Shown here one piece after another: positions 7,181 to 59,645 of a stretch of 64,000 bases of DNA (the first letter of the stretch is position 1; the number at the start of each line of letters is the position of its first letter). The DNA comes from Escherichia coli phage phiS, in sequence record PP449093.1; one strand, given 5' to 3'. The notes below the pieces were generated by a model. That model made no database searches. It saw only the letters and a program-made list of their open reading frames with translations, and was not told where the DNA came from. Made by a program: the position numbers and the translations under genes.

Positions 7181-8422
7181 TTAAGCGTTGTCAATCTCAA
7201 GCGGTGGCAGTTCGATTCCTAAAATGTAGGACATTTCTGAACGTCCAGCCATTTTACCCCAATCGTCACCCTTGATGACCTGGTGTTCTTCCTGATCAAC
7301 TTTTGATGTATATGGGTTGACAGAGAGTGAATAACGATTCATAATAGCTACATGATGCTGGAAGCTATTAGGGTCAATTACACTCTTATACGCGCCAGCG
7401 CCGTCGGCTTCTGTATATGGGGAGTAGAACAGAGAACCTACACTCTCCATATCACCGATCATGTGCTTACAACCAACGAGCATATAATCGAAAGGTGTTG
7501 TCGTGTCTGCGTACACTTCCAGACCGCAACGTAGACGACCTTCGCTTAGAGCATTGTCGGTTTCTTCCATCCATCCGGTAGATTGCAGGAGGCCAACCAC
7601 GCGAGAAGACGCCAAAACGTATGTACCAGCAAAGGAGGAAGTCCGCAACATTTGATTGCTCATTTCGCAAGCATAGCGGTAAAGTTCACGCGCTTGTGTT
7701 GGTGCATCCTGAACGCTAACGAGAGAAAGTATGCCATCAGGGGTGATCCCTTTAATTTTATAGCGAGATGATACAGTGATCAACTTCTGAATAATATCTT
7801 TGTTGATCTCTTCGGAAGCAACAGTAGCCAGAAGATCAATTACAGAGTTTTCAGAGTTGATTTGGCTTGCCTCAAGATCCTGCATTAATTCAGTGGTGAA
7901 CGAGGTTTTCAGTTTACGGGAACCTACATTAACCTGCCATTTATCAAACTGCATAGAGGTAGACGAAATTTCGGTGTTTTTATCTTCAAAGTATTCTACC
8001 GATGCACAATCGCTATAGAAACGAATTTTGTTTGTCATTATGCCTTTAAAGATTGCAGCTTCTGGAGTTTCGGCATCTTCACCGACTGTACCAGCGGTTA
8101 CAACTTCGTATACAACATCGTCTGATTTGAATAGTGCGCCTTCGTCATAAGATTTTTCTTTTGAAAACTCTTCAATCTCTGTGCGATCACCAGCCGCGCC
8201 ACCATAGGTTGTAGCAGTTCGGAAAGTCATCTGACCATCACGATTAAGATAACGTAGGCCGTACAATGCAGATACTGGTTGATCCGTTGGCTGGATTGCT
8301 ACCAGGTCAGAGAAAATCAGGTTGTTTACCGCGCGAGTTAATGATAATAGTTGCGGTCGCGCTGTCTGGTTAGCTACTGAGGAAGTAGATTCCCGCAACA
8401 GTTCAGTAAAAATATGAGTCAT
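7181..8422 (-). CDS. 24: head vertex protein gp24
   Basis: Paralog of gp23 fold; ATG at 8422 aligns with T4 gp24 N-terminus (ELLREST); track ORF extends to 8470 via a non-ATG start that would overlap the late promoter. Confidence 0.85.
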   Translation of the reverse strand: MTHIFTELLRESTSSVANQTARPQLLSLTRAVNNLIFSDLVAIQPTDQPVSALYGLRYLNRDGQMTFRTATTYGGAAGDRTEIEEFSKEKSYDEGALFKSDDVVYEVVTAGTVGEDAETPEAAIFKGIMTNKIRFYSDCASVEYFEDKNTEISSTSMQFDKWQVNVGSRKLKTSFTTELMQDLEASQINSENSVIDLLATVASEEINKDIIQKLITVSSRYKIKGITPDGILSLVSVQDAPTQARELYRYACEMSNQMLRTSSFAGTYVLASSRVVGLLQSTGWMEETDNALSEGRLRCGLEVYADTTTPFDYMLVGCKHMIGDMESVGSLFYSPYTEADGAGAYKSVIDPNSFQHHVAIMNRYSLSVNPYTSKVDQEEHQVIKGDDWGKMAGRSEMSYILGIELPPLEIDNA

Positions 8423-39508: not shown

Positions 39509-41308
39509 TCACCCAAGATCAATACGGCTACCATCAATTTTAACTGTACCCGATGCAATATCTTTAACGTTTGCACCACAATTACGGGACCAGTCACCAT
39601 TAACCTGATCTGATTTAGTGCCATTGACGGTCATATTAAAATTACCTTCAACGGTTAAATCATAGTTACCTTTAATTGTCTCGGTAGTATTACCCTCGAT
39701 CATTAATTCAGCATTACCCTTGACGTTAGCCGTCAAATTAGCGTCAAGCTGTGCGGTAACATCACCTACAACATGCATATTCGCAGTACCCTCAACGGTC
39801 TGATTAACATTGCCACGAATAAATTCAGTGACGTTACCATCAACGGTTTGCATCACATTACCCATATAATAAACTTGCGCGTCACCTTCAACAACAACTT
39901 GCAGATTGCCTTTAACGTTGACTTTGCGACCTTGCTTAACGATCAAATAATCATCACCTTCAATCTTTTCTACCCTCGTTCCGTCCGGTCTGGTTTCTTC
40001 AAATGTACCAGAAGGATGTTTACGATGATATCGCTCGTGAGAAGGAGTATCATCAATCTCTATAATATGACCGCTCTCTGACTCGTATACATGGTTATAA
40101 GGATACCTTGCAGAATACGAACTCTTAGGCTCTTTAAACATGATTCGTGTGTCTTGTGGGGTAAACGGTGCTTCTGGGTCTTCTTCTGCTCTCTGTGTCT
40201 TATAGGCAGCAATACGGGCTTTTCTTAAACGCTCTCTAGGATCATCAGAAATTGATTCCTCTTTCTTTGTAGCAATTACGCCATATGATTCTAAGTTACC
40301 AGTAAGAATAATTTTAGAAACACGGTTGGAGCGTCCTGGAGTTTGACTAGCCCATACAGATTGACGTAATCCATCATAGGCTTGTTTCCATTCTTCCGCC
40401 AGCATTGCAGCAAGACTATTCTTAAATTTACCCAATCCACCAACGCCCATTTGAAACGCCATATTTTCTAATGCCATACGACGAGAAGCATTACATTTAT
40501 TATAGACAGGTGCAATACGTGGATGTTTGCGCATATCACGACGGGTCTTTTCTATATCGTCAGCAAATACTTTACTAACTTCTTCGGCGGTAAGTCTTCC
40601 GTTTGTAACTTCACGCCCTACCAGCTTAGAAAGTTCATTATTGATAATACCCAGATCACTGGTTTTCTTATAAATGATCAAATGCCCGATCCCTATTGTC
40701 GGATATCCTTCTGAATCAAGATACCATTTCTCGCGATATCCCTCATCGCCCCGCAGCATTTTTTCTATTGTAAAATCAGGATTATCATCAACCGGAATTT
40801 GGTCTAATGGCTCGTCGTCTGGATTTACTGCAACTCCAGTGTTTTCATCTCGAATATAGACACTATCAGGTTTTGTTGTTTGTCCGGTTTCTGGGTTAAT
40901 ACCGCCACGGGCAAGAATATTAACATCATTACCAATATAACGAGGATATGCACCAGAAGGGTCACAAAAACCTTCTGTAGTGAGTGGTTTCTCTGTATAT
41001 TGTCCGGCAATAGTACCCAGAATAACGCAGTTTAAATAACGTTCATCTAAAGCCAAACCAAATACCATTGAACCTTCAACAATACCAGTAGGACTTTGAC
41101 CTATACCGGAGATCGCCGCGCTTGTAATATCTTGTACTGGAGTAATCCATAATAGATCTTCGGTTGGGAGACCTTGAATGTCACCGTGTGCGGATAGCGA
41201 AGGATGTATACCATGAATCCTAACCTGAACACGCCCCAGCATTAATGGGTCTTCCCTGTTTTCTACAATTCCGGTAAACCATTTAACGGAGTTATTAAAC
41301 ATTAGCAT
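39509..41308 (-). CDS. 5: baseplate hub and tail lysozyme gp5
   Basis: OB-fold N-terminus, T4-lysozyme-like domain (DSEGYPTIGIGHLI), C-terminal VxGxxxxxG beta-helix repeats. Confidence 0.85.
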   Translation of the reverse strand: MLMFNNSVKWFTGIVENREDPLMLGRVQVRIHGIHPSLSAHGDIQGLPTEDLLWITPVQDITSAAISGIGQSPTGIVEGSMVFGLALDERYLNCVILGTIAGQYTEKPLTTEGFCDPSGAYPRYIGNDVNILARGGINPETGQTTKPDSVYIRDENTGVAVNPDDEPLDQIPVDDNPDFTIEKMLRGDEGYREKWYLDSEGYPTIGIGHLIIYKKTSDLGIINNELSKLVGREVTNGRLTAEEVSKVFADDIEKTRRDMRKHPRIAPVYNKCNASRRMALENMAFQMGVGGLGKFKNSLAAMLAEEWKQAYDGLRQSVWASQTPGRSNRVSKIILTGNLESYGVIATKKEESISDDPRERLRKARIAAYKTQRAEEDPEAPFTPQDTRIMFKEPKSSYSARYPYNHVYESESGHIIEIDDTPSHERYHRKHPSGTFEETRPDGTRVEKIEGDDYLIVKQGRKVNVKGNLQVVVEGDAQVYYMGNVMQTVDGNVTEFIRGNVNQTVEGTANMHVVGDVTAQLDANLTANVKGNAELMIEGNTTETIKGNYDLTVEGNFNMTVNGTKSDQVNGDWSRNCGANVKDIASGTVKIDGSRIDLG

Positions 41309-43743: not shown

Positions 43744-44277
43744 ATGTCTGGTTTTAAGATGTGGGATGATTTTACACAAAAAGAAATTAGAGATAAGTAT
43801 AAACACGTTAATGGTATATTGTACCATTTGAAAGACAGTGGAAAGAATGGTCGATGGTATAAGGCAGGAGACCCGGTTAAAGTTTATAAAAATAGTCGAG
43901 GTTATCTATGTTTTAAGTTTTGGCGCAGTGATGGCTATTCTTTGGTCATTAAAGTTCATAGGGTTGTTTGGTATCTTGAACATGGTACGCAAGTTAAAAT
44001 GATCGACCATGTAGATAGAAACCGAGAAAATAATGCACCGGATAACTTGAGAGAATCCACTTCTCAGGAAAATGCATTCAATCGCGGAAAACTTGATGGT
44101 TGTAAGAGCAAGTATAAAGGAGTGATTAGAACACAGAATAACAAATGGTGTGCTCAGATATCAATCAATCGTAGAAAGGTCCATTTGGGCGTCTTTCTTG
44201 ACGAAGTTGATGCTGCAAAGGCTTATGACGAAGCAGCAAAGGAACATTTTGGAGATTATGCTAGTTTAAATTTTTAG
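43744..44277 (+). CDS. HNH-AP2 homing endonuclease (copy 1)
   Basis: HNH core (HRVVWYLEHG, IDHVDRNRENN) followed by AP2-like DNA-binding domain (YKGV, KW.A.I, LG.F, EAA.AYD); paralog of 52200..52775. Confidence 0.75.
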   Translation: MSGFKMWDDFTQKEIRDKYKHVNGILYHLKDSGKNGRWYKAGDPVKVYKNSRGYLCFKFWRSDGYSLVIKVHRVVWYLEHGTQVKMIDHVDRNRENNAPDNLRESTSQENAFNRGKLDGCKSKYKGVIRTQNNKWCAQISINRRKVHLGVFLDEVDAAKAYDEAAKEHFGDYASLNF

Positions 44278-47950: not shown

Positions 47951-48165
47951 AAATGACTTTTTATATCTTAGCAAGTATCATGCTTGTGATCTCTTCTGCA
48001 CTATTTGCATTTCTTACCGTTTGGGGGATCTGTACTGATGCGAAGCCGTGGGATATCGTAGAAAATACGGTTATGTTTATTATTAGTGTCATGTGTCTTT
48101 TTGATGCATTTAACTCTATCAAGGAAGAAGATCAAAAACGTCGCGAGAGAAAGCGATATAAATAA
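47947..48165 (+). CDS. small membrane protein (72 aa)
   Basis: ATGA overlap; hydrophobic with basic C-terminus. Confidence 0.4.
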   Translation: MKMTFYILASIMLVISSALFAFLTVWGICTDAKPWDIVENTVMFIISVMCLFDAFNSIKEEDQKRRERKRYK

Positions 48166-48316
48166 TAGTGAACTAAAGACAGCGCGGTTAGAATGATTTG
48201 GACGTCACCTAGCCGCATTTATTACAGCGTATGTTGGCGATCCGGTACGCTAAAGCATTCACTTGCTAGGCCGCTAGCAGGTTGGAGACAAGGAAGATTC
48301 GCTACCTTCCCTATAA

Positions 48317-48340
48317 GCCACTCTTCGGAGTGGCTTTTTT
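48317..48340 (+). terminator. rho-independent terminator
   Basis: gccactc-ttcg-gagtggc hairpin followed by tttttt. Confidence 0.7.
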
Positions 48341-48367
48341 ATTGCCTAAAATTTTTTAAAAAAGTTG

Positions 48368-48396
48368 TTGACACCAGATCCGGCCTATAGCATAAT
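48368..48396 (+). promoter_or_regulatory. early promoter cassette P3 (TTGACA-17-CATAAT)
   Basis: Conserved leader acacccatcgaaacgaaacac. Confidence 0.6.
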
Positions 48397-48442
48397 ACAC
48401 CCATCGAAACGAAACACACTTTCTTAAACGGAGAATCAAATT

Positions 48443-48628
48443 ATGGCACGTCGCATCACTAAAGCACTGAAAGCAGTAAGCAAAGAAAACGTAGTAGCTA
48501 TTCTGGTAATCTGGGGTTATAACGAAGAATCCGCTAAACAGAAAGTTGAAGCAGGGTTTGAACTGGCAGTAAAAGCAATGCCGAATGATGACTCTGTAGG
48601 ACTGGCAAACTATATTGCATATTTCTGA
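48443..48628 (+). CDS. hypothetical early protein (61 aa)
   Basis: Conserved RBS. Confidence 0.45.
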   Translation: MARRITKALKAVSKENVVAILVIWGYNEESAKQKVEAGFELAVKAMPNDDSVGLANYIAYF

Positions 48629-48636
48629 TAAAAGTG

Positions 48637-48665
48637 TTGACAGGGGAGGATAACTCCCCTACAAT
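48637..48665 (+). promoter_or_regulatory. early promoter cassette P4 (TTGACA-17-TACAAT, palindromic spacer GGGGAG..CTCCCC)
   Basis: Spacer is a perfect inverted repeat. Confidence 0.55.
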
Positions 48666-48694
48666 ACAAACATCAACGAAACGGGAGAATCAAA

Positions 48695-48916
48695 ATGATT
48701 AACTTTAAAGACGCAGCAAAAGAAATTATCGACTTTGAGCGTGAACTGTTTGAGATGGAACCAAATATGAGTAAACTGGAATTGGCTAACCAGATCTGGT
48801 GCTCTAAGATGAATCCATCCGACCGCTTAGAAGTTATGAACATCGTAGGCGAAGTGAAAGGTAGTGCATTAATGAAACTCCGCGCTTGTCACGCTTACAT
48901 CGCTGATCAACTATAA
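48695..48916 (+). CDS. hypothetical early protein (73 aa)
   Basis: Conserved RBS. Confidence 0.45.
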   Translation: MINFKDAAKEIIDFERELFEMEPNMSKLELANQIWCSKMNPSDRLEVMNIVGEVKGSALMKLRACHAYIADQL

Positions 48917-48925
48917 GGGGGTAAT

Positions 48926-49120
48926 ATGGGGGATAAACCATTAGTACAACTAAGAGTACGCTATAACCAGATTTTAGCATTACTTAAAGCTGAGGGTGTA
49001 GACCCATCGGACCGCGAGGCTGTAAAAGCGTGTCTATCTGATACGGTACAGCCAAAACATAATTTTGCTTGTTATATGTACTTTTACAATAGGTTGAATA
49101 GACCGTTTGAGTTTGAATAA
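48926..49120 (+). CDS. hypothetical early protein (64 aa)
   Basis: ORF with GGGGG RBS. Confidence 0.4.
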   Translation: MGDKPLVQLRVRYNQILALLKAEGVDPSDREAVKACLSDTVQPKHNFACYMYFYNRLNRPFEFE

Positions 49121-49142
49121 CGTTAAGTGTTGAGGTGATACT

Positions 49143-49331
49143 ATGGAAGACCAAATTGAACAATTACGCGAATCCGCTAAAGAGCATGGTATGAGCGAAG
49201 CGTTTGTAGAATGGTTTATCTCTAAAAAGGTTGATTCCTGCGGGTGCTTTAACTTCCTTACTATGTCCATTATGTGGGAAGGTTGGAAAGGTGCTGTAGA
49301 AACTGCTCTAGAAATTATGAAAAAAGACTAA
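49143..49331 (+). CDS. hypothetical early protein (62 aa)
   Basis: ORF with GAGGTGA RBS. Confidence 0.4.
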   Translation: MEDQIEQLRESAKEHGMSEAFVEWFISKKVDSCGCFNFLTMSIMWEGWKGAVETALEIMKKD

Positions 49332-49339
49332 AAAAGTTG

Positions 49340-49368
49340 TTGACACGCGAGAGGGTGTATAGCATAAT
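49340..49368 (+). promoter_or_regulatory. early promoter cassette P5 (TTGACA-17-CATAAT, inverted repeat GGGTGTA/TACACCC around -10)
   Basis: Conserved leader. Confidence 0.6.
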
Positions 49369-49410
49369 ACACCCATCGAAACGAAACACGAACTACTAAG
49401 GAGTATCAAA

Positions 49411-49737
49411 ATGAAACCAGTATCTGTTAAAGTTATCTTCTCTGAATCTTCTGTATTCGCTAACGCAAACGAAGTATTCCACTTCGAAGACTTCGAGCGT
49501 AAAGCACAGGACGCGGCAGCAAAAGCCTATGAAAGCGAATATGACAAAACTCAAATCGAGGTTACTTTCGAAAACGGCACTACTTACGCTTGCCGCCTTG
49601 ACCTGGGTGATCGTCTGTCTGGCTTCCGTCACCATGTAGAGAAGACAATCGCTTTCTCTAAAACCGAAAAAGGAAAACACTACTTTTCTGTTTTCGGTAC
49701 TAAAAATCTGGATTTCTTGAAAACTGTTTCTTTCTAA
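49411..49737 (+). CDS. hypothetical early protein (108 aa)
   Basis: Conserved RBS. Confidence 0.5.
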   Translation: MKPVSVKVIFSESSVFANANEVFHFEDFERKAQDAAAKAYESEYDKTQIEVTFENGTTYACRLDLGDRLSGFRHHVEKTIAFSKTEKGKHYFSVFGTKNLDFLKTVSF

Positions 49738-49745
49738 GGTATATT

Positions 49746-49928
49746 ATGAAAAAGATTAATTGGTTAGCGAACATAGGCGCGGTCTGCGCCTTTAACATCC
49801 TCGGATGGATAATGTTACATTTTGATGAGCGAGTTTCAAAATGTGAGGGTGCATTGATTCTCGGATCTGCTAGCATATTCATTATGCTGTATGTAATTGC
49901 TGTTGACTTAAGCCGCGAGGATTGTTAA
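49746..49928 (+). CDS. small membrane protein (60 aa)
   Basis: Hydrophobic. Confidence 0.4.
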   Translation: MKKINWLANIGAVCAFNILGWIMLHFDERVSKCEGALILGSASIFIMLYVIAVDLSREDC

Positions 49929-49929
49929 T

Positions 49930-50124
49930 ATGAATATTACTAATACGGCTATCGGATTTTCTAGCGCCTTTGCTAGTTTCTTTGCGCTGGTCTGTATGTT
50001 TGTTTTTATTCCTGTTGTATATCTTGGATATTGTGATATTGAAATTGCATTGATTGCTGGGATCTATATGTGGGTTGCGGTCTTTGTTCTTTCTGTTATA
50101 ATGTGCAAGATTATTGACCATTGA
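49930..50124 (+). CDS. small membrane protein (64 aa)
   Basis: Hydrophobic. Confidence 0.4.
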   Translation: MNITNTAIGFSSAFASFFALVCMFVFIPVVYLGYCDIEIALIAGIYMWVAVFVLSVIMCKIIDH

Positions 50125-50146
50125 TTAACTATGTGAGGATTATACT

Positions 50147-50467
50147 ATGAGCAAACTGTTTGAAACTCCGCGTGAAATTCTAATTGATAAGCTGAAACAA
50201 CGTGGTTTTAAAATCAAAGATGCAACCAAATACAGCCGAATTGATGAAATTAAGTTGCATTCTCTTGATGAACTGGTAGAATATGTTGCGGCAGTGGCTG
50301 ATCCGCAGTTTGATGTGATTGTAGGTGACGTTGAATATCTCGATAATGTATATTCATTCTTCACTTATGGTAAAATTGTGTCTGTGAAAATATCATTCTG
50401 TGAAAATGTGGAGGTGCTTGCTAGTGAACCAGAAAAACCAACTGACAACGGTCCTACGGCAGCGTAA
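50147..50467 (+). CDS. hypothetical protein (106 aa)
   Basis: GAGG RBS. Confidence 0.45.
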   Translation: MSKLFETPREILIDKLKQRGFKIKDATKYSRIDEIKLHSLDELVEYVAAVADPQFDVIVGDVEYLDNVYSFFTYGKIVSVKISFCENVEVLASEPEKPTDNGPTAA

Positions 50468-50738
50468 CAAGGAAGACCGTCTGATTTATGCGCTGGCGGT
50501 TATCCTTGAAAAAGAATTACCGGATCTTGATGTAGTTTTTACTGACCGACCAGTAGGCCAACGTTACGGAGGATATGACAGCCTAGTTTATCCATCATAT
50601 AGCATTGAAATGTGGGTAGAAGATTTTAAAAACTTGGCTGATACATCTAAACCGCTTTATTTGTGGGATGTTGAGTATAATTGCGATCCTAACTGGCCTG
50701 GCATTAATGTTTATGCGTCTATGACTTTAAAGGTGTGA
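50400..50738 (+). CDS. hypothetical protein, 5' end overlapping previous ORF by 68 nt (true start uncertain)
   Basis: No in-frame Met downstream of the overlap; possible frameshift or long overlap. Confidence 0.3.
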   Translation: MKMWRCLLVNQKNQLTTVLRQRNKEDRLIYALAVILEKELPDLDVVFTDRPVGQRYGGYDSLVYPSYSIEMWVEDFKNLADTSKPLYLWDVEYNCDPNWPGINVYASMTLKV

Positions 50739-50960
50739 TAATGGTTGAACAAATGTTAACTTCAATGGTAATGGCTTTCTGTGTGGGTGTTGTTCTGTTT
50801 GCGATGATTCCAAAAGACCGAATGAATCTGCTTGTTGCTGTGTGTTTGGGTGTGGTTAGCGGTTGGTGTGGAATCGTTCTAGAACACGCTCTGCGATGAT
50901 TAACAATGCGGGTAGGGTAATGTACTACCCGCACTAAATTAGCTCACTGGAGGGCTTTCT

Positions 50961-51149
50961 ATGGCGTTTTGTCTATGGTTGCTTATAGTATGCTTTGTAA
51001 TTGGTTTATGCTTCTATACTGGCGTATTCTGTTTTGTCGCCTGGATAGACGGCGGATTCTCTAATATCATTTTGCTTGCAGGATCAATTGCCTCGTTTCT
51101 GTTTATTTGGCTATTTTCATATTTGATTGGTGAATGGGATTTATTATGA
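50961..51149 (+). CDS. small membrane protein (62 aa)
   Basis: Hydrophobic. Confidence 0.4.
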   Translation: MAFCLWLLIVCFVIGLCFYTGVFCFVAWIDGGFSNIILLAGSIASFLFIWLFSYLIGEWDLL

Positions 51150-51325
51150 ACAAATATATGTTTTGGGCGACCATTGCCTATGTTGTGATTGCGGTAGTAT
51201 GGGGATTCTGTGTTATTGTCGCTTCTCTGATCTGGTGGGAATCACTTGGTGCGGGTTGTCTGATTAGCGGCGCATCATGTCTTATCACTGGCGTGATTGT
51301 TGGTTTTCTTGTGTCGGAGGCTTGA
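51134..51325 (+). CDS. small membrane protein (63 aa)
   Basis: Hydrophobic. Confidence 0.4.
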   Translation: MGFIMNKYMFWATIAYVVIAVVWGFCVIVASLIWWESLGAGCLISGASCLITGVIVGFLVSEA

Positions 51326-51327
51326 CA

Positions 51328-51543
51328 ATGGTTTTCTTCGGTCTTATTATAATGGTGCTTAATGTCATTTGTGGCGTTGCTATGTTAGCTATGGCCTTTA
51401 CTGTTCCTATGTCTGTTGATAGCGCCGCATCCGTAGGTGTGTTGGGAATTGTAAACCTGTTTACCGCCCTAGCATGTTGGATCACCGGACGCGATGAGGT
51501 AATGTATTACTTTTATAAACGTAAACAGAGAAAAGGAAAATAA
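51328..51543 (+). CDS. small membrane protein (71 aa)
   Basis: ATG at 51328 with GGAGG RBS (track ORF starts upstream). Confidence 0.4.
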   Translation: MVFFGLIIMVLNVICGVAMLAMAFTVPMSVDSAASVGVLGIVNLFTALACWITGRDEVMYYFYKRKQRKGK

Positions 51544-51544
51544 T

Positions 51545-51736
51545 ATGAAATTTGCATTTGGTTTTACCGTGATGTTGATTATTGCTCTGAGTATGTGTAC
51601 CGGAATGCTTGTATTTGGTCTTGCAAACGGGTTTAGCATTTATAATAATCAGTGGGTTGATTGGGGAATGGTTGTCGTTAATGCGATCCTGATTGGTGCT
51701 AATACAAGAAATCTATGCAGGATCGCCGGAATCTAA
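51545..51736 (+). CDS. small membrane protein (63 aa)
   Basis: Hydrophobic. Confidence 0.4.
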   Translation: MKFAFGFTVMLIIALSMCTGMLVFGLANGFSIYNNQWVDWGMVVVNAILIGANTRNLCRIAGI

Positions 51737-51764
51737 ATATTATCACTCACAAAGGGGGTGAATA

Positions 51765-52154
51765 ATGTTTAAATTATCTCAAAGAAGCAAAGATCGGCTT
51801 GTTGGTGTACATCCTGATCTGGTAAAAGTCGTTCATCGTGCGTTAGAACTGACTCCGGTCGATTTTGGTATTACGGAAGGTGTGCGTAGTCTAGAAACGC
51901 AAAAGAAATATGTTGCGGAAGGTAAATCTAAGACTATGAAATCTCGTCATCTTCACGGTTTCGCGGTTGACGTTGTAGCGTATCCGAAAGATAAGGATAC
52001 ATGGAACATGAAATACTACCACATGATCGCGGATGCATTTAAACAAGCTGGTCGAGAATTGGGTGTTCCTGTTATCTGCGGTGTTGATTGGGTTACTTTT
52101 AAAGACGGACCGCATATGGAACTCGATAAAAAGGTATATCCAGACCCGGTATAA
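51765..52154 (+). CDS. M15-family L-alanyl-D-glutamate peptidase (T5-type endolysin-like)
   Basis: Motifs SRHLHGFAVD and DGPHMEL; overall similarity to T5 endolysin as recalled. Confidence 0.75.
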   Translation: MFKLSQRSKDRLVGVHPDLVKVVHRALELTPVDFGITEGVRSLETQKKYVAEGKSKTMKSRHLHGFAVDVVAYPKDKDTWNMKYYHMIADAFKQAGRELGVPVICGVDWVTFKDGPHMELDKKVYPDPV

Positions 52155-52199
52155 CTAAAATCAAGCCAGCTTAATCGCTGGCTTTGTGAGGATTATAAA

Positions 52200-52775
52200 A
52201 TGGCTTTTAAATATTGGGATGAATCCCTACAAAACGAGATAAAACTTAGATATGCTCATATAGAGGGTATCTTATATTATAGAGTCGATAGTAAAGCTAT
52301 CAAAGGACGACCATTAGGGAGTAGATATAAACACGGCGATTTAGTTAAAGTCAGAACAAATAAAGATGGTCATCTTAGATTTTGGCATAGTAGAGATGAC
52401 GGTCTTCCTAGAGTTCATCTATTCGTGCATAGGGTTGTTTGGTTTCTGGAACATGGGACGCAAGTTAGATTAATTGATCATATTGACGGGAATCCTGCTA
52501 ATAACAATCCTCCAAATCTTAGGGAGGCAACCGACGCGCAAAATCAACACAATAGAAAGAAGAAGTCTAAAAAGTTTTCTAGTGTGTATAAGGGTGTTAG
52601 TAAGTGTAACAGGAAGGATTTGCGTAAGAAATGGAGAGCTAGTATAATGGTCAACCTAAAAAGACATGTTCTTGGACAATATGACACAGAAATCGAAGCT
52701 GCAATCGCTTATGATAATGCAGCTAGGAAATTTTATGGAGAATATGCTCTATTGAATTTCCCAGATCCAAAATAA
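52200..52775 (+). CDS. HNH-AP2 homing endonuclease (copy 2)
   Basis: HRVVWFLEHG, IDHIDGN..NN HNH core plus AP2-like C-terminal domain; paralog of 43744..44277. Confidence 0.75.
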   Translation: MAFKYWDESLQNEIKLRYAHIEGILYYRVDSKAIKGRPLGSRYKHGDLVKVRTNKDGHLRFWHSRDDGLPRVHLFVHRVVWFLEHGTQVRLIDHIDGNPANNNPPNLREATDAQNQHNRKKKSKKFSSVYKGVSKCNRKDLRKKWRASIMVNLKRHVLGQYDTEIEAAIAYDNAARKFYGEYALLNFPDPK

Positions 52776-52837
52776 AATATTAACCATCAACGGGGAGACA
52801 ATCTAAGGATCTCTCCCCGTTCACTGGAGACTTTACC

Positions 52838-53323
52838 ATGAATATTGATGTAAAATTAGAAAGTAAAGATTTGATTTATGCTGCGTGTGTATCTGCCGTA
52901 AATGGCATCATAGAACGCCGTAAGCGACGAAATTTTGCTGATGACCTAGATTCCATCGTCTCAATCAATTTAGGCCGTCAAACAGGGCATACAGACGCTA
53001 CAATCAAGCTATATGACCATTATACGCGAAAAGGATATAGTGTCTTTATCGTTTCAACGACGCGGGAACATGCCAAAACGATCCGAGATCGCGGTCGCGG
53101 TGAAAATGTAAATATTTCAAATGTAGATTGTACGTCGATCCGAACTTTCCTGAATCCGATCACATGGCGAGGGCGTAGTCTTGACAAAACAATTTTTATC
53201 CTAGATACTACCATGCGCGGATTTACTGACAGCGTATTGCAGTTTTTAGAAGTAAATCGACTTAGTGTTGGGATGGGTAATGTAGAAGACCAACCTATTT
53301 TCATTGGCTTAGGTATCAACTAA
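52838..53323 (+). CDS. hypothetical protein (161 aa)
   Basis: ORF with GGAGA RBS. Confidence 0.45.
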   Translation: MNIDVKLESKDLIYAACVSAVNGIIERRKRRNFADDLDSIVSINLGRQTGHTDATIKLYDHYTRKGYSVFIVSTTREHAKTIRDRGRGENVNISNVDCTSIRTFLNPITWRGRSLDKTIFILDTTMRGFTDSVLQFLEVNRLSVGMGNVEDQPIFIGLGIN

Positions 53324-53458
53324 TGAAAAATAAAGATAGCGTAGCTCGTCGATTCCGTGCTACAATCAATAAGAATCGTAAAGTCCAACCTGATAAACTC
53401 TATGGTGTTTTGGTTGGTAAAATTAATGACGAACGTCCTGATCTATAAGAGGTGAATT

Positions 53459-53875
53459 ATGGAATTTAAAGCAATTCAAATCATGAAAGGTGAGCATAAA
53501 GGTACTATTATTGGTGGACACTTCGCGCCTATGATTCTGGTATCCGAACCGAAAGCACTGATCGGCGCTAAAGTAATTGTTAGTAAAACTTTCGCAGAAG
53601 ACCATGTGATCACCGCAGAAGACGTCGATTCTCTGGCACTGCACACAACTAGCTTCCGTCCTGTTTATATCGAAGATAGTATTGGTATGAAGCGAGGATC
53701 TCAACATCTCAACGTCAATGTAATGAATCGCGACCTTCTTCTGGATGCGGTAGAGAATCCGGATAAATATCCATCACTAACTGTACGAATTTCAGGCTAT
53801 GCGGTCAGATTTAATGCACTTACGCCGGAACAACAACGAGATATCATTACCCGAACCTTCACGGAAGCAATGTAA
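53459..53875 (+). CDS. autonomous glycyl-radical cofactor (GrcA/YfiD-like; T4 Y06I-type)
   Basis: C-terminal glycyl-radical motif (HLNVNV, TVRISGYAVRFN, LTPEQQRD) near-identical to GrcA. Confidence 0.85.
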   Translation: MEFKAIQIMKGEHKGTIIGGHFAPMILVSEPKALIGAKVIVSKTFAEDHVITAEDVDSLALHTTSFRPVYIEDSIGMKRGSQHLNVNVMNRDLLLDAVENPDKYPSLTVRISGYAVRFNALTPEQQRDIITRTFTEAM

Positions 53876-53882
53876 TTTTTTA

Positions 53883-53915
53883 AGCCAATCCTAAAGGGTT
53901 GGCTTTTTCTTTTTA
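53883..53915 (+). terminator. rho-independent terminator
   Basis: agccaa...ttggct hairpin followed by ttttt c ttttt. Confidence 0.6.
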
Positions 53916-53958
53916 TTGTGATATGATGACAAAACTTAACAACATGGAGATTGACATT

Positions 53959-54486
53959 ATGATTAAAAGATATTGTGACGACCATCCGGTGGAAGAGTGG
54001 AAAGTGATTGAGGATCTTTATCCGTTAACTCATTTTGAGATTAGCTCTCATGGTCGAGTTAGAAATTCTATTACCGGAAAATATTTGTCTATTGTTGAAA
54101 CGAAAGATTATACTAAAGTTTCTTTTAAGCATCGTCCTAGTAAAACGCATAAAACTTTAAACATGCATAGGATGATGGCTGTTGCGTTTATTCCTAATCC
54201 TAATAATTATCGTGTAGTTAACCATAAGGATGGAAACAAGAGAAATTTTGACCTGTACAATCTTGAATGGACTACAGACACGCGAAATCTTGCTCATGCA
54301 AAGGAAGAAGGGTTAAACAAAAATTGGGGAGAGAACCACGGAAACGCAAAACTAACAGATAAGCAAGTGAAAGAGATTTTAGCTTCTCCACATATGAAAG
54401 GTGTAGAGCTTGCAAGAAAATATAATGTTACCCCTGCCACAATTAGCCGTGTCCGAAATGGTAAAGTCCGTAACGTCAAATACTAA
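53959..54486 (+). CDS. HNH homing endonuclease with NUMOD4-like N-terminus and C-terminal HTH
   Basis: HFEISSHGRVRN, NHKDGNKRNF..NLEW HNH core, C-terminal helix-turn-helix; ATG at 53959 follows the terminator (track start lies inside it). Confidence 0.7.
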   Translation: MIKRYCDDHPVEEWKVIEDLYPLTHFEISSHGRVRNSITGKYLSIVETKDYTKVSFKHRPSKTHKTLNMHRMMAVAFIPNPNNYRVVNHKDGNKRNFDLYNLEWTTDTRNLAHAKEEGLNKNWGENHGNAKLTDKQVKEILASPHMKGVELARKYNVTPATISRVRNGKVRNVKY

Positions 54487-56564: not shown

Positions 56565-57155
56565 ATGTTAAAAGTTCTAAAAGCGATAGTATTGAGTCTG
56601 TCACTAGCCGTTGGTGCTACACACGCATCGACTAGCGCACCGATCAAAAAAGCGCCGATAGACAACTTTACAGCACACCAACTAGATAATTTACATTTCG
56701 CCTATCAATACGGCGAGCAATTCGAGAAAAGCGGTAAGTTGAAAAAGTACCATCCGAATATTCGCTATAACGGAAAGGGTTTAGGTCACATCCTGGCGGG
56801 TATCGCATGGCAAGAATCAAGCGCGGGTGCAAACTTAGCACCAAAGAAAAATCATCATGCTTATGGATTATTTCAAAATTACCTTAAAACGGTGAAAGCG
56901 AAAAATGCAAAGCGCGGTGTTAAAATGAGTGATCGCCAGACTATCAACTTTATCATGAATCGCGAGGTTTCTGCATTCTACGCGATGGATGAGTTAGCAT
57001 ACTGGCTGGATGTTCGAAACGGTAATATCCGACTCGCGCTAGCTTCTTACAATGCAGGGTGGAACTATAAAGCCGGGTTAGGTTATGCTGATGACGTACT
57101 AAAAAAGGCTAACCATCTAAAGAGTAAAGGCATTCTTAAGACTAAACGCTATTGA
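56565..57155 (+). CDS. secreted lytic transglycosylase (SLT domain) with signal peptide
   Basis: N-terminal signal peptide; SLT motifs AWQESS, YGLFQ, ASYNAG. Confidence 0.7.
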   Translation: MLKVLKAIVLSLSLAVGATHASTSAPIKKAPIDNFTAHQLDNLHFAYQYGEQFEKSGKLKKYHPNIRYNGKGLGHILAGIAWQESSAGANLAPKKNHHAYGLFQNYLKTVKAKNAKRGVKMSDRQTINFIMNREVSAFYAMDELAYWLDVRNGNIRLALASYNAGWNYKAGLGYADDVLKKANHLKSKGILKTKRY

Positions 57156-59342: not shown

Positions 59343-59645
59343 ATGTCATTTATTCGTAAAACTCTAACAGCGGCAATATGCTTGACTGCGGTCGGAAGTG
59401 TCAGTGCTGACCAATATGATCCAACTGGTGATTTTACTGATTATTTCGACGGCGCAATGATAGTATATGTAAACAAAATATCTCCTTCCATTGAAACCAG
59501 CCAGAAATTTCATGCCCATATTATGAAGATGTATGCTCGTAGTAAATGTATGGATTCTAGGCAGTGTTTTATTATGGGGGGATATGCCGCACAACAATTT
59601 GTTCTGTTGCATAATATGGAGAATCGAGAACATGAAATTCAGTGA
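59343..59645 (+). CDS. secreted small protein with signal peptide (100 aa)
   Basis: N-terminal signal peptide. Confidence 0.45.
   Translation: MSFIRKTLTAAICLTAVGSVSADQYDPTGDFTDYFDGAMIVYVNKISPSIETSQKFHAHIMKMYARSKCMDSRQCFIMGGYAAQQFVLLHNMENREHEIQ

Follow-up and report, generated by a model that had tools for sequence, protein, structure and literature searches.

The 64,000-nt stretch of Escherichia coli phage phiS DNA analysed here (PP449093.1; hereafter the window) carries a gene for a 129-aa M15 peptidase in the interval where T4 has its e lysozyme gene. This raises the question of whether the peptidase serves as the lysis enzyme of the phage and, if so, whether the exchange is particular to phiS or belongs to its lineage. 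An earlier note on this DNA, made from the letters alone, had suggested that the lysis enzyme had been replaced by a peptidase of different bond specificity. We conclude, with a probability of about 0.93, that the M15 gene is the canonical Krischvirus endolysin gene, located in the slot of T4 e in a lineage that has no e gene.

Genomic setting of the M15 gene

The window belongs to Krischvirus, the RB49/JSE group of T4-like coliphages in the Straboviridae. A 2-kb stretch around the M15 gene was matched at 97-98.5% identity over its full length in 13 of 58 Krischvirus records; the records matched include RB49, JSE, Phi1 and ECD7. The nearest records at the endolysin locus were FL04, G5211 and OZ035808 (~99% identity), and each of the 58 records carries the M15 endolysin gene. 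Gene names in the window were assigned with the JSE RefSeq annotation as a guide. The whole JSE genome (four loci), which has a local identity of 98.4% to the window, was used as a proxy for the phiS genome beyond the window. The IMG/VR loci held one Krischvirus only (L005) and were used solely for family conservation statistics.

The M15 gene encodes a zinc peptidase of the EndoRB49 type

The M15 gene (51765..52154, plus strand) encodes a predicted zinc L-alanyl-D-glutamate peptidase of M15 subfamily C, orthologous to EndoRB49 and LysECD7. The 129-aa ORF proved genuine, with an ATG start and a strong Shine-Dalgarno sequence, GGGGGTG (51754..51760, plus strand), which lies 4 nt before the ATG and is conserved in JSE, RB49, ECD7 and the L090 locus. 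Both motifs singled out in the earlier note, SRHLHGFAVD and DGPHMEL, were found in the protein. The zinc ligands H62, D69 and H117 are in place and are invariant across 44 relatives, and the catalytic D114 is kept together with the conserved W109 near the active site; the roles of these residues (H62, D69 and H117 in zinc binding, D114 in catalysis, and W109) were described for EndoRB49 (PMC10487532). The proposed membership of the M15 family was supported by a profile search, in which Pfam Peptidase_M15_4 scored 33.6 bits against a gathering score of 25 (E 5.8e-8), and the protein also matched the PHROG 465 'endolysin' family (4e-63).

Searches of the PDB returned EndoRB49 (23ri, E 1.4e-76) and LysECD7 (8q2g, E 1.8e-73), followed by ChiX (E 3e-32) and then the T5 endolysin (2mxz, E 2.8e-20). 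The resemblance to the T5 enzyme along its length, pointed out in the earlier note, was confirmed by alignment of 2mxz residues 3-128 with residues 2-124 of the M15 protein at ~36% identity. An AlphaFold model built on the 44 relatives had a pLDDT of 93.2, and Foldseek gave TM scores of 0.87 to 8q2g, 0.87 to ChiX (5opz) and 0.71 to EndoT5 (2mxz). The protein has no signal, SAR or transmembrane segment (maximum 19-residue Kyte-Doolittle value 0.81, threshold 1.6). Together, the sequence and the model identify the predicted product as a small soluble single-domain zinc metallopeptidase of MEROPS M15 subfamily C.

EndoRB49 (RB49 ORF102c, NP_891673, PDB 23ri) and LysECD7 (8q2g) come from the same genus and the same locus and are likewise 129 aa long. 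Residues 1-103 are 99-100% identical to those of the phiS protein, and the zinc ligands, the catalytic Asp, W109 and the fold are shared. The nearest cellular relative with a structure is ChiX of Serratia marcescens, an L-Ala-D-Glu endopeptidase with 48% identity to the M15 protein. This bacterial protein acts, with a holin-like partner, in the secretion of chitinase rather than in phage release. EndoT5 (2mxz, 8p3a) shares the M15C fold, the H-D-H zinc site, the catalytic Asp, the conserved Trp and the bond cleaved, but an insertion of ~11 residues separates its conserved Trp from its catalytic Asp and forms the Ca2+-binding loop by which it is regulated. No such loop is present in EndoRB49, which functions 'without ion regulation' (PMC10487532).

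The bond specificity of the phiS allele, L-Ala-D-Glu, is predicted from that of EndoRB49, to which it is ~90% identical. For EndoRB49, EndoRB43 and EndoT5, bond specificity was determined by NMR with a synthetic muropeptide as the substrate (PMC8140593), and lytic activity was reported for EndoRB49 (PMC8140593) and for LysECD7 (PMC7175214). The lytic activity, bond specificity and structure in the literature are those of orthologues ~90% identical to the phiS allele. A VanY-like D-Ala-D-Ala carboxypeptidase, rather than an L-Ala-D-Glu endopeptidase, is suggested by the Pfam description of PF13539, by annotations such as 'D-alanyl-D-alanine carboxypeptidase' in phage W115 and by the description of LysECD7 in PMC7175214, and RB49ORF102c was listed in 2006 under that same name as a Pfam match (Nolan et al., PMC1524935). 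However, the nearest solved relatives, ChiX, EndoT5, Ply500 and LysB4, are all L-Ala-D-Glu peptidases, and the VanY and VanXY structures are far more distant from the M15 model (TM 0.44-0.54). This makes carboxypeptidase activity a very improbable function for the phiS protein.

EndoRB43 and EndoRB49 were characterised as thermostable endolysins by Mikoulinskaia et al. (2018, J Gen Virol 99:402), as that work is cited in PMC10487532 and PMC8140593. Later work comprised an active-site analysis with W109 mutants (PMC10487532), substrate work (PMC8140593) and structures, and LysECD7 is under development as an antibacterial (PMC7175214). The presence of a peptidase instead of the e lysozyme in RB49-like phages is correct and is already published.

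The peptidase gene occupies the slot of T4 e

To the earlier claim that the window has no T4 e-type gene, tblastn gave a clear answer: with T4 e as the query, the lysozyme domain of gp5 was the only match (40283-40768, minus strand; 42.6% identity, E 7e-36). The query sequence is 98.2% identical to the annotated T4 gene. Gene 5 (39509..41308, minus strand) encodes the 599-aa baseplate hub and tail lysozyme, with the Pfam domains Gp5_OB, Phage_lysozyme and Gp5_C, and contains the sole T4 e-like sequence in the window. Queries with lambda R and T7 amidase matched nothing in the window. The search was extended to the whole JSE genome as the proxy, in which again gp5 alone matched T4 e. A T4 t query identified the annotated 218-aa JSE holin (48.5% identity), and the JSE annotation also includes rI, rIIA/B and the spanins pseT.3/pseT.2. 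The rI antiholin gene, the regulatory partner of the T-type holin, lies within the window (59343..59645, plus strand; Pfam Antiholin, 3e-23), and the holin gene itself lies outside it. Among the records listed, e-like sequences occurred in two places (e and gp5) in T4-, T2-, JS98- and Aeromonas-type phages and in one place in the Krischvirus records FL38 and MIZ2 (gp5) and in KP15-like Klebsiella phages.

We compared the gene order of the window with that of T4, for which the record used was a deletion clone with a clear order. The T4 order is 5, 53, 4, 2, 3, 1, 57A, 57B, ipI, the tRNA region, e.8, nudE and e, followed by ipII, regB, vs.1, vs, tk.4 and so on to tk and rI. In the left part of the window, uvsY is followed by the structural genes up to 5, 53, 4, 2, a homing endonuclease gene (HEG), 3, 1, 57A and 57B. 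The right part begins with a long series of ~25 small ORFs, which leads to the M15 gene, and continues after it with a HEG, vs.8, vs.6, another HEG, nrdC.11, regB, vs.1, vs, tk.4, tk and rI. Both the M15 gene and T4 e thus lie, on the same strand, in the variable interval that separates 57B from the block formed by regB, vs.1, vs, tk.4, tk and rI. Since the T-type holin, rI and the spanins are retained, the peptidase fills the slot of T4 e. The suggested exchange of the lysis enzyme for a peptidase of other bond specificity is upheld by this shared slot, by the lack of an e homologue other than gp5 and by the conserved holin, rI and spanins, and it is lineage-wide rather than peculiar to the phiS window. 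T4 e, a GH24 muramidase, has the same job as the M15 enzyme, that of a soluble holin-dependent endolysin, but the two differ in fold and chemistry, one being a glycosidase and the other a metallopeptidase, and have no detectable similarity. The replacement of e by the M15 gene is a textbook case of non-orthologous replacement within a lysis system whose holin, antiholin and spanins are conserved.

In a KP15-like Klebsiella phage, an M15 gene of 47% identity fills the corresponding slot and precedes vs.1, vs, tk.4 and tk, and the flanking orthologues in this phage have 35-49% identity, similar to the divergence of the M15 gene. Because the M15 gene is in the same slot and has diverged as its neighbours have, the exchange is probably old and common to the RB49 and RB43/KP15 groups. 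Independent acquisition of M15 genes by Krischvirus and the RB43/KP15 group was considered because prophage M15 enzymes are nearer (60-65%) than those of the KP15 type (47%); the same slot and the neighbour-like divergence speak against it.

In the proposed mechanism, the M15 peptidase would accumulate in the cytoplasm, lacking any signal or membrane segment. As it has no hydrophobic segment, it would stay there until the membrane is opened. A T4-type holin T, controlled by the RI antiholin, would then open the inner membrane and allow the peptidase to reach the murein. The holin dependence and the timing of the M15 endolysin are, as we infer, those of such a system.

A second muralytic-like gene, vs.1

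Two of the earlier statements did not hold, namely that the M15 gene is the only endolysin-like gene and that gp5 has the only lysozyme fold. The vs.1 orthologue (56565..57155, plus strand) encodes a 196-aa protein with an SLT lytic-transglycosylase domain (Pfam SLT, 25.8 bits against a gathering score of 21.3), which is another domain of the lysozyme superfamily and had already been pointed out in 2006 (PMC1524935). The protein contains the motifs IAWQESS (E-S), GLFQ and SYNAG (YNAG), and its N-terminus, MLKVLKAIVLSLSLAVGATHA, resembles a signal peptide. This suggests that Vs.1 is probably a periplasmic muralytic-like protein. A PDB sequence search with Vs.1 gave no significant match.

These features could be taken to mean that lysis is carried out, wholly or for the most part, by the exported SLT protein, with the M15 peptidase as an accessory, and 'some role in cell lysis' was proposed for vs.1 by Nolan et al. 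(2006, PMC1524935). The distribution of the gene argues against such a role, because vs.1 is conserved whichever endolysin is present: T4 has a vs.1 gene near e, 47% identical to that of the window, so Vs.1 is not a substitute for e. T4 e mutants do not lyse although vs.1 is present. Moreover, a strong murein hydrolase exported by Sec would lyse the cell without holin control, and EndoRB49 and LysECD7 are demonstrably lytic. We consider it most unlikely that Vs.1 is the main lysis enzyme, and assign this role to the M15 endolysin.

The 3' end of the endolysin gene is recoded

Comparison of the endolysin gene with those of RB49, ECD7 and SFHK24 revealed a sharp boundary. Nucleotides 1-309 are 97-98% identical to these genes (97.7% to RB49), whereas the last 81 nt (310-390) are only 59-62% identical (62% to RB49). 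The recoded 3' end comprises codons 104-129 (52074..52154, plus strand) and appears to have been imported with the HEG cassette described below. The differences from RB49 are clustered: of the 375 positions aligned, the final 66 contain 26 of the 33 (hypergeometric p 3.6e-16). At the protein level, the phiS protein and its orthologues EndoRB49 and LysECD7 differ at 12 of the 26 residues between 104 and 129 (ICGVDWVTFKDGPHMELDKKVYPDPV against EWGGDWTSFKDGPHLQLPHSKYPDPK). Among the changes, W105, a Trp in 71/73 homologues, is replaced by Cys, and G107, a Gly or Ala in 72/73, by Val. EndoT5 has a Phe at the position that is W105 in most relatives (primer sequence, PMC10487532).

The variant C-terminus is 100% identical in all 13 HEG-carrying Krischvirus records. 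The other 45 records have at most 71% identity over the C-terminal segment, with none intermediate. A similar end, hereafter C-type (VVCGVDW...HIELDKKVYPDPR), is native to HEG-less phages of a related lineage, such as P0003 (a 174.8-kb contig), in which the 3' end has 90.8% DNA identity to that of the cassette. This points to a C-type lineage like that of P0003 as the likely source of the recoded end. Scans of the IMG/VR and JGI metagenome contigs with degenerate DNA patterns for ICGVDWVTFKDG gave 0 hits in either set, and the C-type relatives were located via the protein database instead.

The changes in the recoded C-terminus, among them W105C and G107V at nearly invariant positions of the family, might indicate that the HEG insertion damaged the gene and left an inactive or crippled enzyme. 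Several lines of evidence make this scarcely credible. Thirteen independently isolated plaque-forming phages, among them the therapy candidate JSE, carry the exact allele and have no other endolysin. Many metagenomes also contain HEG-less phages with the C-type end (81 indexed blocks for P0003). In addition, the catalytic residues are all kept, and the model has a pLDDT of 83-91 over residues 101-129. Two natural C-terminal allele classes of an applied enzyme offer a comparison for structure-activity work.

An HNH-AP2 homing endonuclease gene adjoins the recoded end

The endolysin gene is followed by a free-standing HEG (52200..52775, plus strand) encoding 191 aa with HNH_3 and AP2 domains. 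Pfam HNH_3 was matched at 2.6e-10 (40.2 bits against a cut-off of 24.8) and AP2 at 8.6e-6 (26.4 bits, below the cut-off of 33.3), and the protein matched the HNH endonucleases of PHROG 99 (2.2e-44). The HEG was found in 13/58 Krischvirus records, and RB49, ECD7 and SFHK24 lack it. It is perfectly linked to the recoded end of the endolysin gene, which is present in 13/13 HEG-carrying and 0/45 HEG-less records.

Alignment with HEG-less Krischvirus genomes defined a 621-bp insertion (52140..52760, plus strand) located 15 nt ahead of the former stop codon of the endolysin gene. At its start the insertion has CCAGACCCGGTATAA, a diverged version of the original end of the gene, CCAGATCCAAAATAA, which now supplies the HEG ORF with its final five codons and its stop. 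A GC-rich hairpin, AAGCCAGC-TTAATC-GCTGGCTT (52163..52184), lies between the two genes and is part of the inserted cassette. The same cassette is carried by a metagenomic contig (L096), in which the tract corresponding to 52032-52806 (775 bp) is 99.7% identical to the window, and the first 150 nt of its endolysin gene are only 83% identical. The near-identity of this tract beside so divergent a flank indicates that the cassette moved between genetic backgrounds.

As read from the sequences, this arrangement is consistent with intronless homing in which flanking markers are co-converted. T4 SegF and SegG are described as cases of this process (Belle 2002 and Liu 2003, as reported in PMC2993671). 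Like them, the phiS HEG is free-standing, polymorphic among close relatives and co-inherited with a sharply bounded foreign flank. In contrast to them, it is predicted to be of the HNH-AP2 rather than the GIY-YIG type, lies within the 3' end of the endolysin gene and seems to carry a replacement for that end. The HEG was inserted 15 nt before the original endolysin stop, probably bringing with it a foreign allele of the last 26 codons. Cleavage, immunity and homing by the HNH-AP2 endonuclease are presumed. We tentatively propose that the endolysin gene is a homing site of this enzyme and that the 3' end of the cassette keeps the gene intact and immune while spreading a distinct allele, a reading that we hold to be possible but short of probable. 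If it is true, a biochemically distinct endolysin allele spreads through Krischvirus populations.

The divergent 3' end could also have come from ordinary recombination between Krischvirus lineages, with the HEG merely adjacent and neither homing nor co-conversion involved. In a HEG-less metagenomic Krischvirus (L093), the endolysin gene (2605-2994, protein P0002) joins a 5' part of the RB49 type (97%) to a 3' part of the C-type, the latter beginning further upstream (AAKEFNIPIVCGIDW...), and C-type ends also occur without a HEG at loci L089-L092. The P0002 chimera indicates that recombination in the endolysin gene occurs or persists without the endonuclease. Ordinary recombination as the whole explanation seems unlikely, though less so than the alternatives considered above, given the perfect linkage between the HEG and the recoded end, the 99.7% identical tract in two backgrounds next to an endolysin 5' part of only 83% identity, and the use of the old endolysin stop codon to terminate the HEG ORF. 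The homing proposal would make the HEG-linked chimeric endolysin allele a fresh instance of a known process, and one endolysin allele class spread by a HEG a simple system for HNH-AP2 homing.

Two further free-standing HNH endonuclease genes were found in the window. One, located between genes 2 and 3 (43744-44277, plus strand), encodes HNH_3 and AP2 domains. The other lies between vs.6 and nrdC.11 (53899-54486, plus strand) and has an HNH_3 domain with sub-threshold NUMOD4 and HTH_26 matches; RB49 has no HNH gene between vs.6 and nrdC.11. JSE was reported to have 7 putative HEGs against 2 in RB49 (PMC2993671). In a KP15-like Klebsiella phage (L097), an HNH-like ORF at 8087-8392, ~700 bp 3' of the M15 gene, has 34% identity to residues 77-182 of the HEG in the window. 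This could be another instance of an endonuclease gene located close to an M15 endolysin gene.

Upstream signals and neighbouring small ORFs

A weak candidate for a late promoter, TCTAAATA (51732..51739, plus strand), lies 26 nt before the endolysin ATG. It has one mismatch to the T4 consensus, TATAAATA, and is conserved in Krischvirus relatives. No exact copy of the T4 late promoter was found within 3.6 kb upstream of the endolysin gene, the nearest on the same strand being at 48157. Strong sigma-70-type promoters are present upstream, such as TTGACA-17-TATTAT at 51322-51350. Near-consensus sites of this kind (TTGACA-17-CATAAT, TACAAT or TATTAT, 11/12 matches) lie at 48368-51350 on the plus strand, ahead of the small-ORF cluster, and 29 promoter-like sites were found in 48000-54000 compared to 17.4 expected. 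This apparent excess in the small-ORF region is consistent with early transcription.

Seven small ORFs (54-71 aa; 49746-51736, plus strand) lie directly 5' of the endolysin gene, and every one of them encodes either one or two segments of strong hydrophobicity. One of them, of 71 aa (51328..51543), combines two hydrophobic segments with a basic C-terminal tail, KRKQRKGK, an architecture like that of holins. Four small hydrophobic ORFs (50961-51736) were considered as holin candidates and set aside: their PHROG matches are exclusively Krischvirus-specific families of unassigned function, a T-type holin is encoded elsewhere, and the KP15-type M15 gene has no counterpart beside it. A holin role for the small upstream ORFs is speculation. 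Further upstream in this hyperplastic region, a 108-aa ORF (49411-49737, plus strand) matches Pfam LPD25 (large polyvalent protein associated domain 25; E 3e-14) and is conserved in every related metagenomic contig examined.
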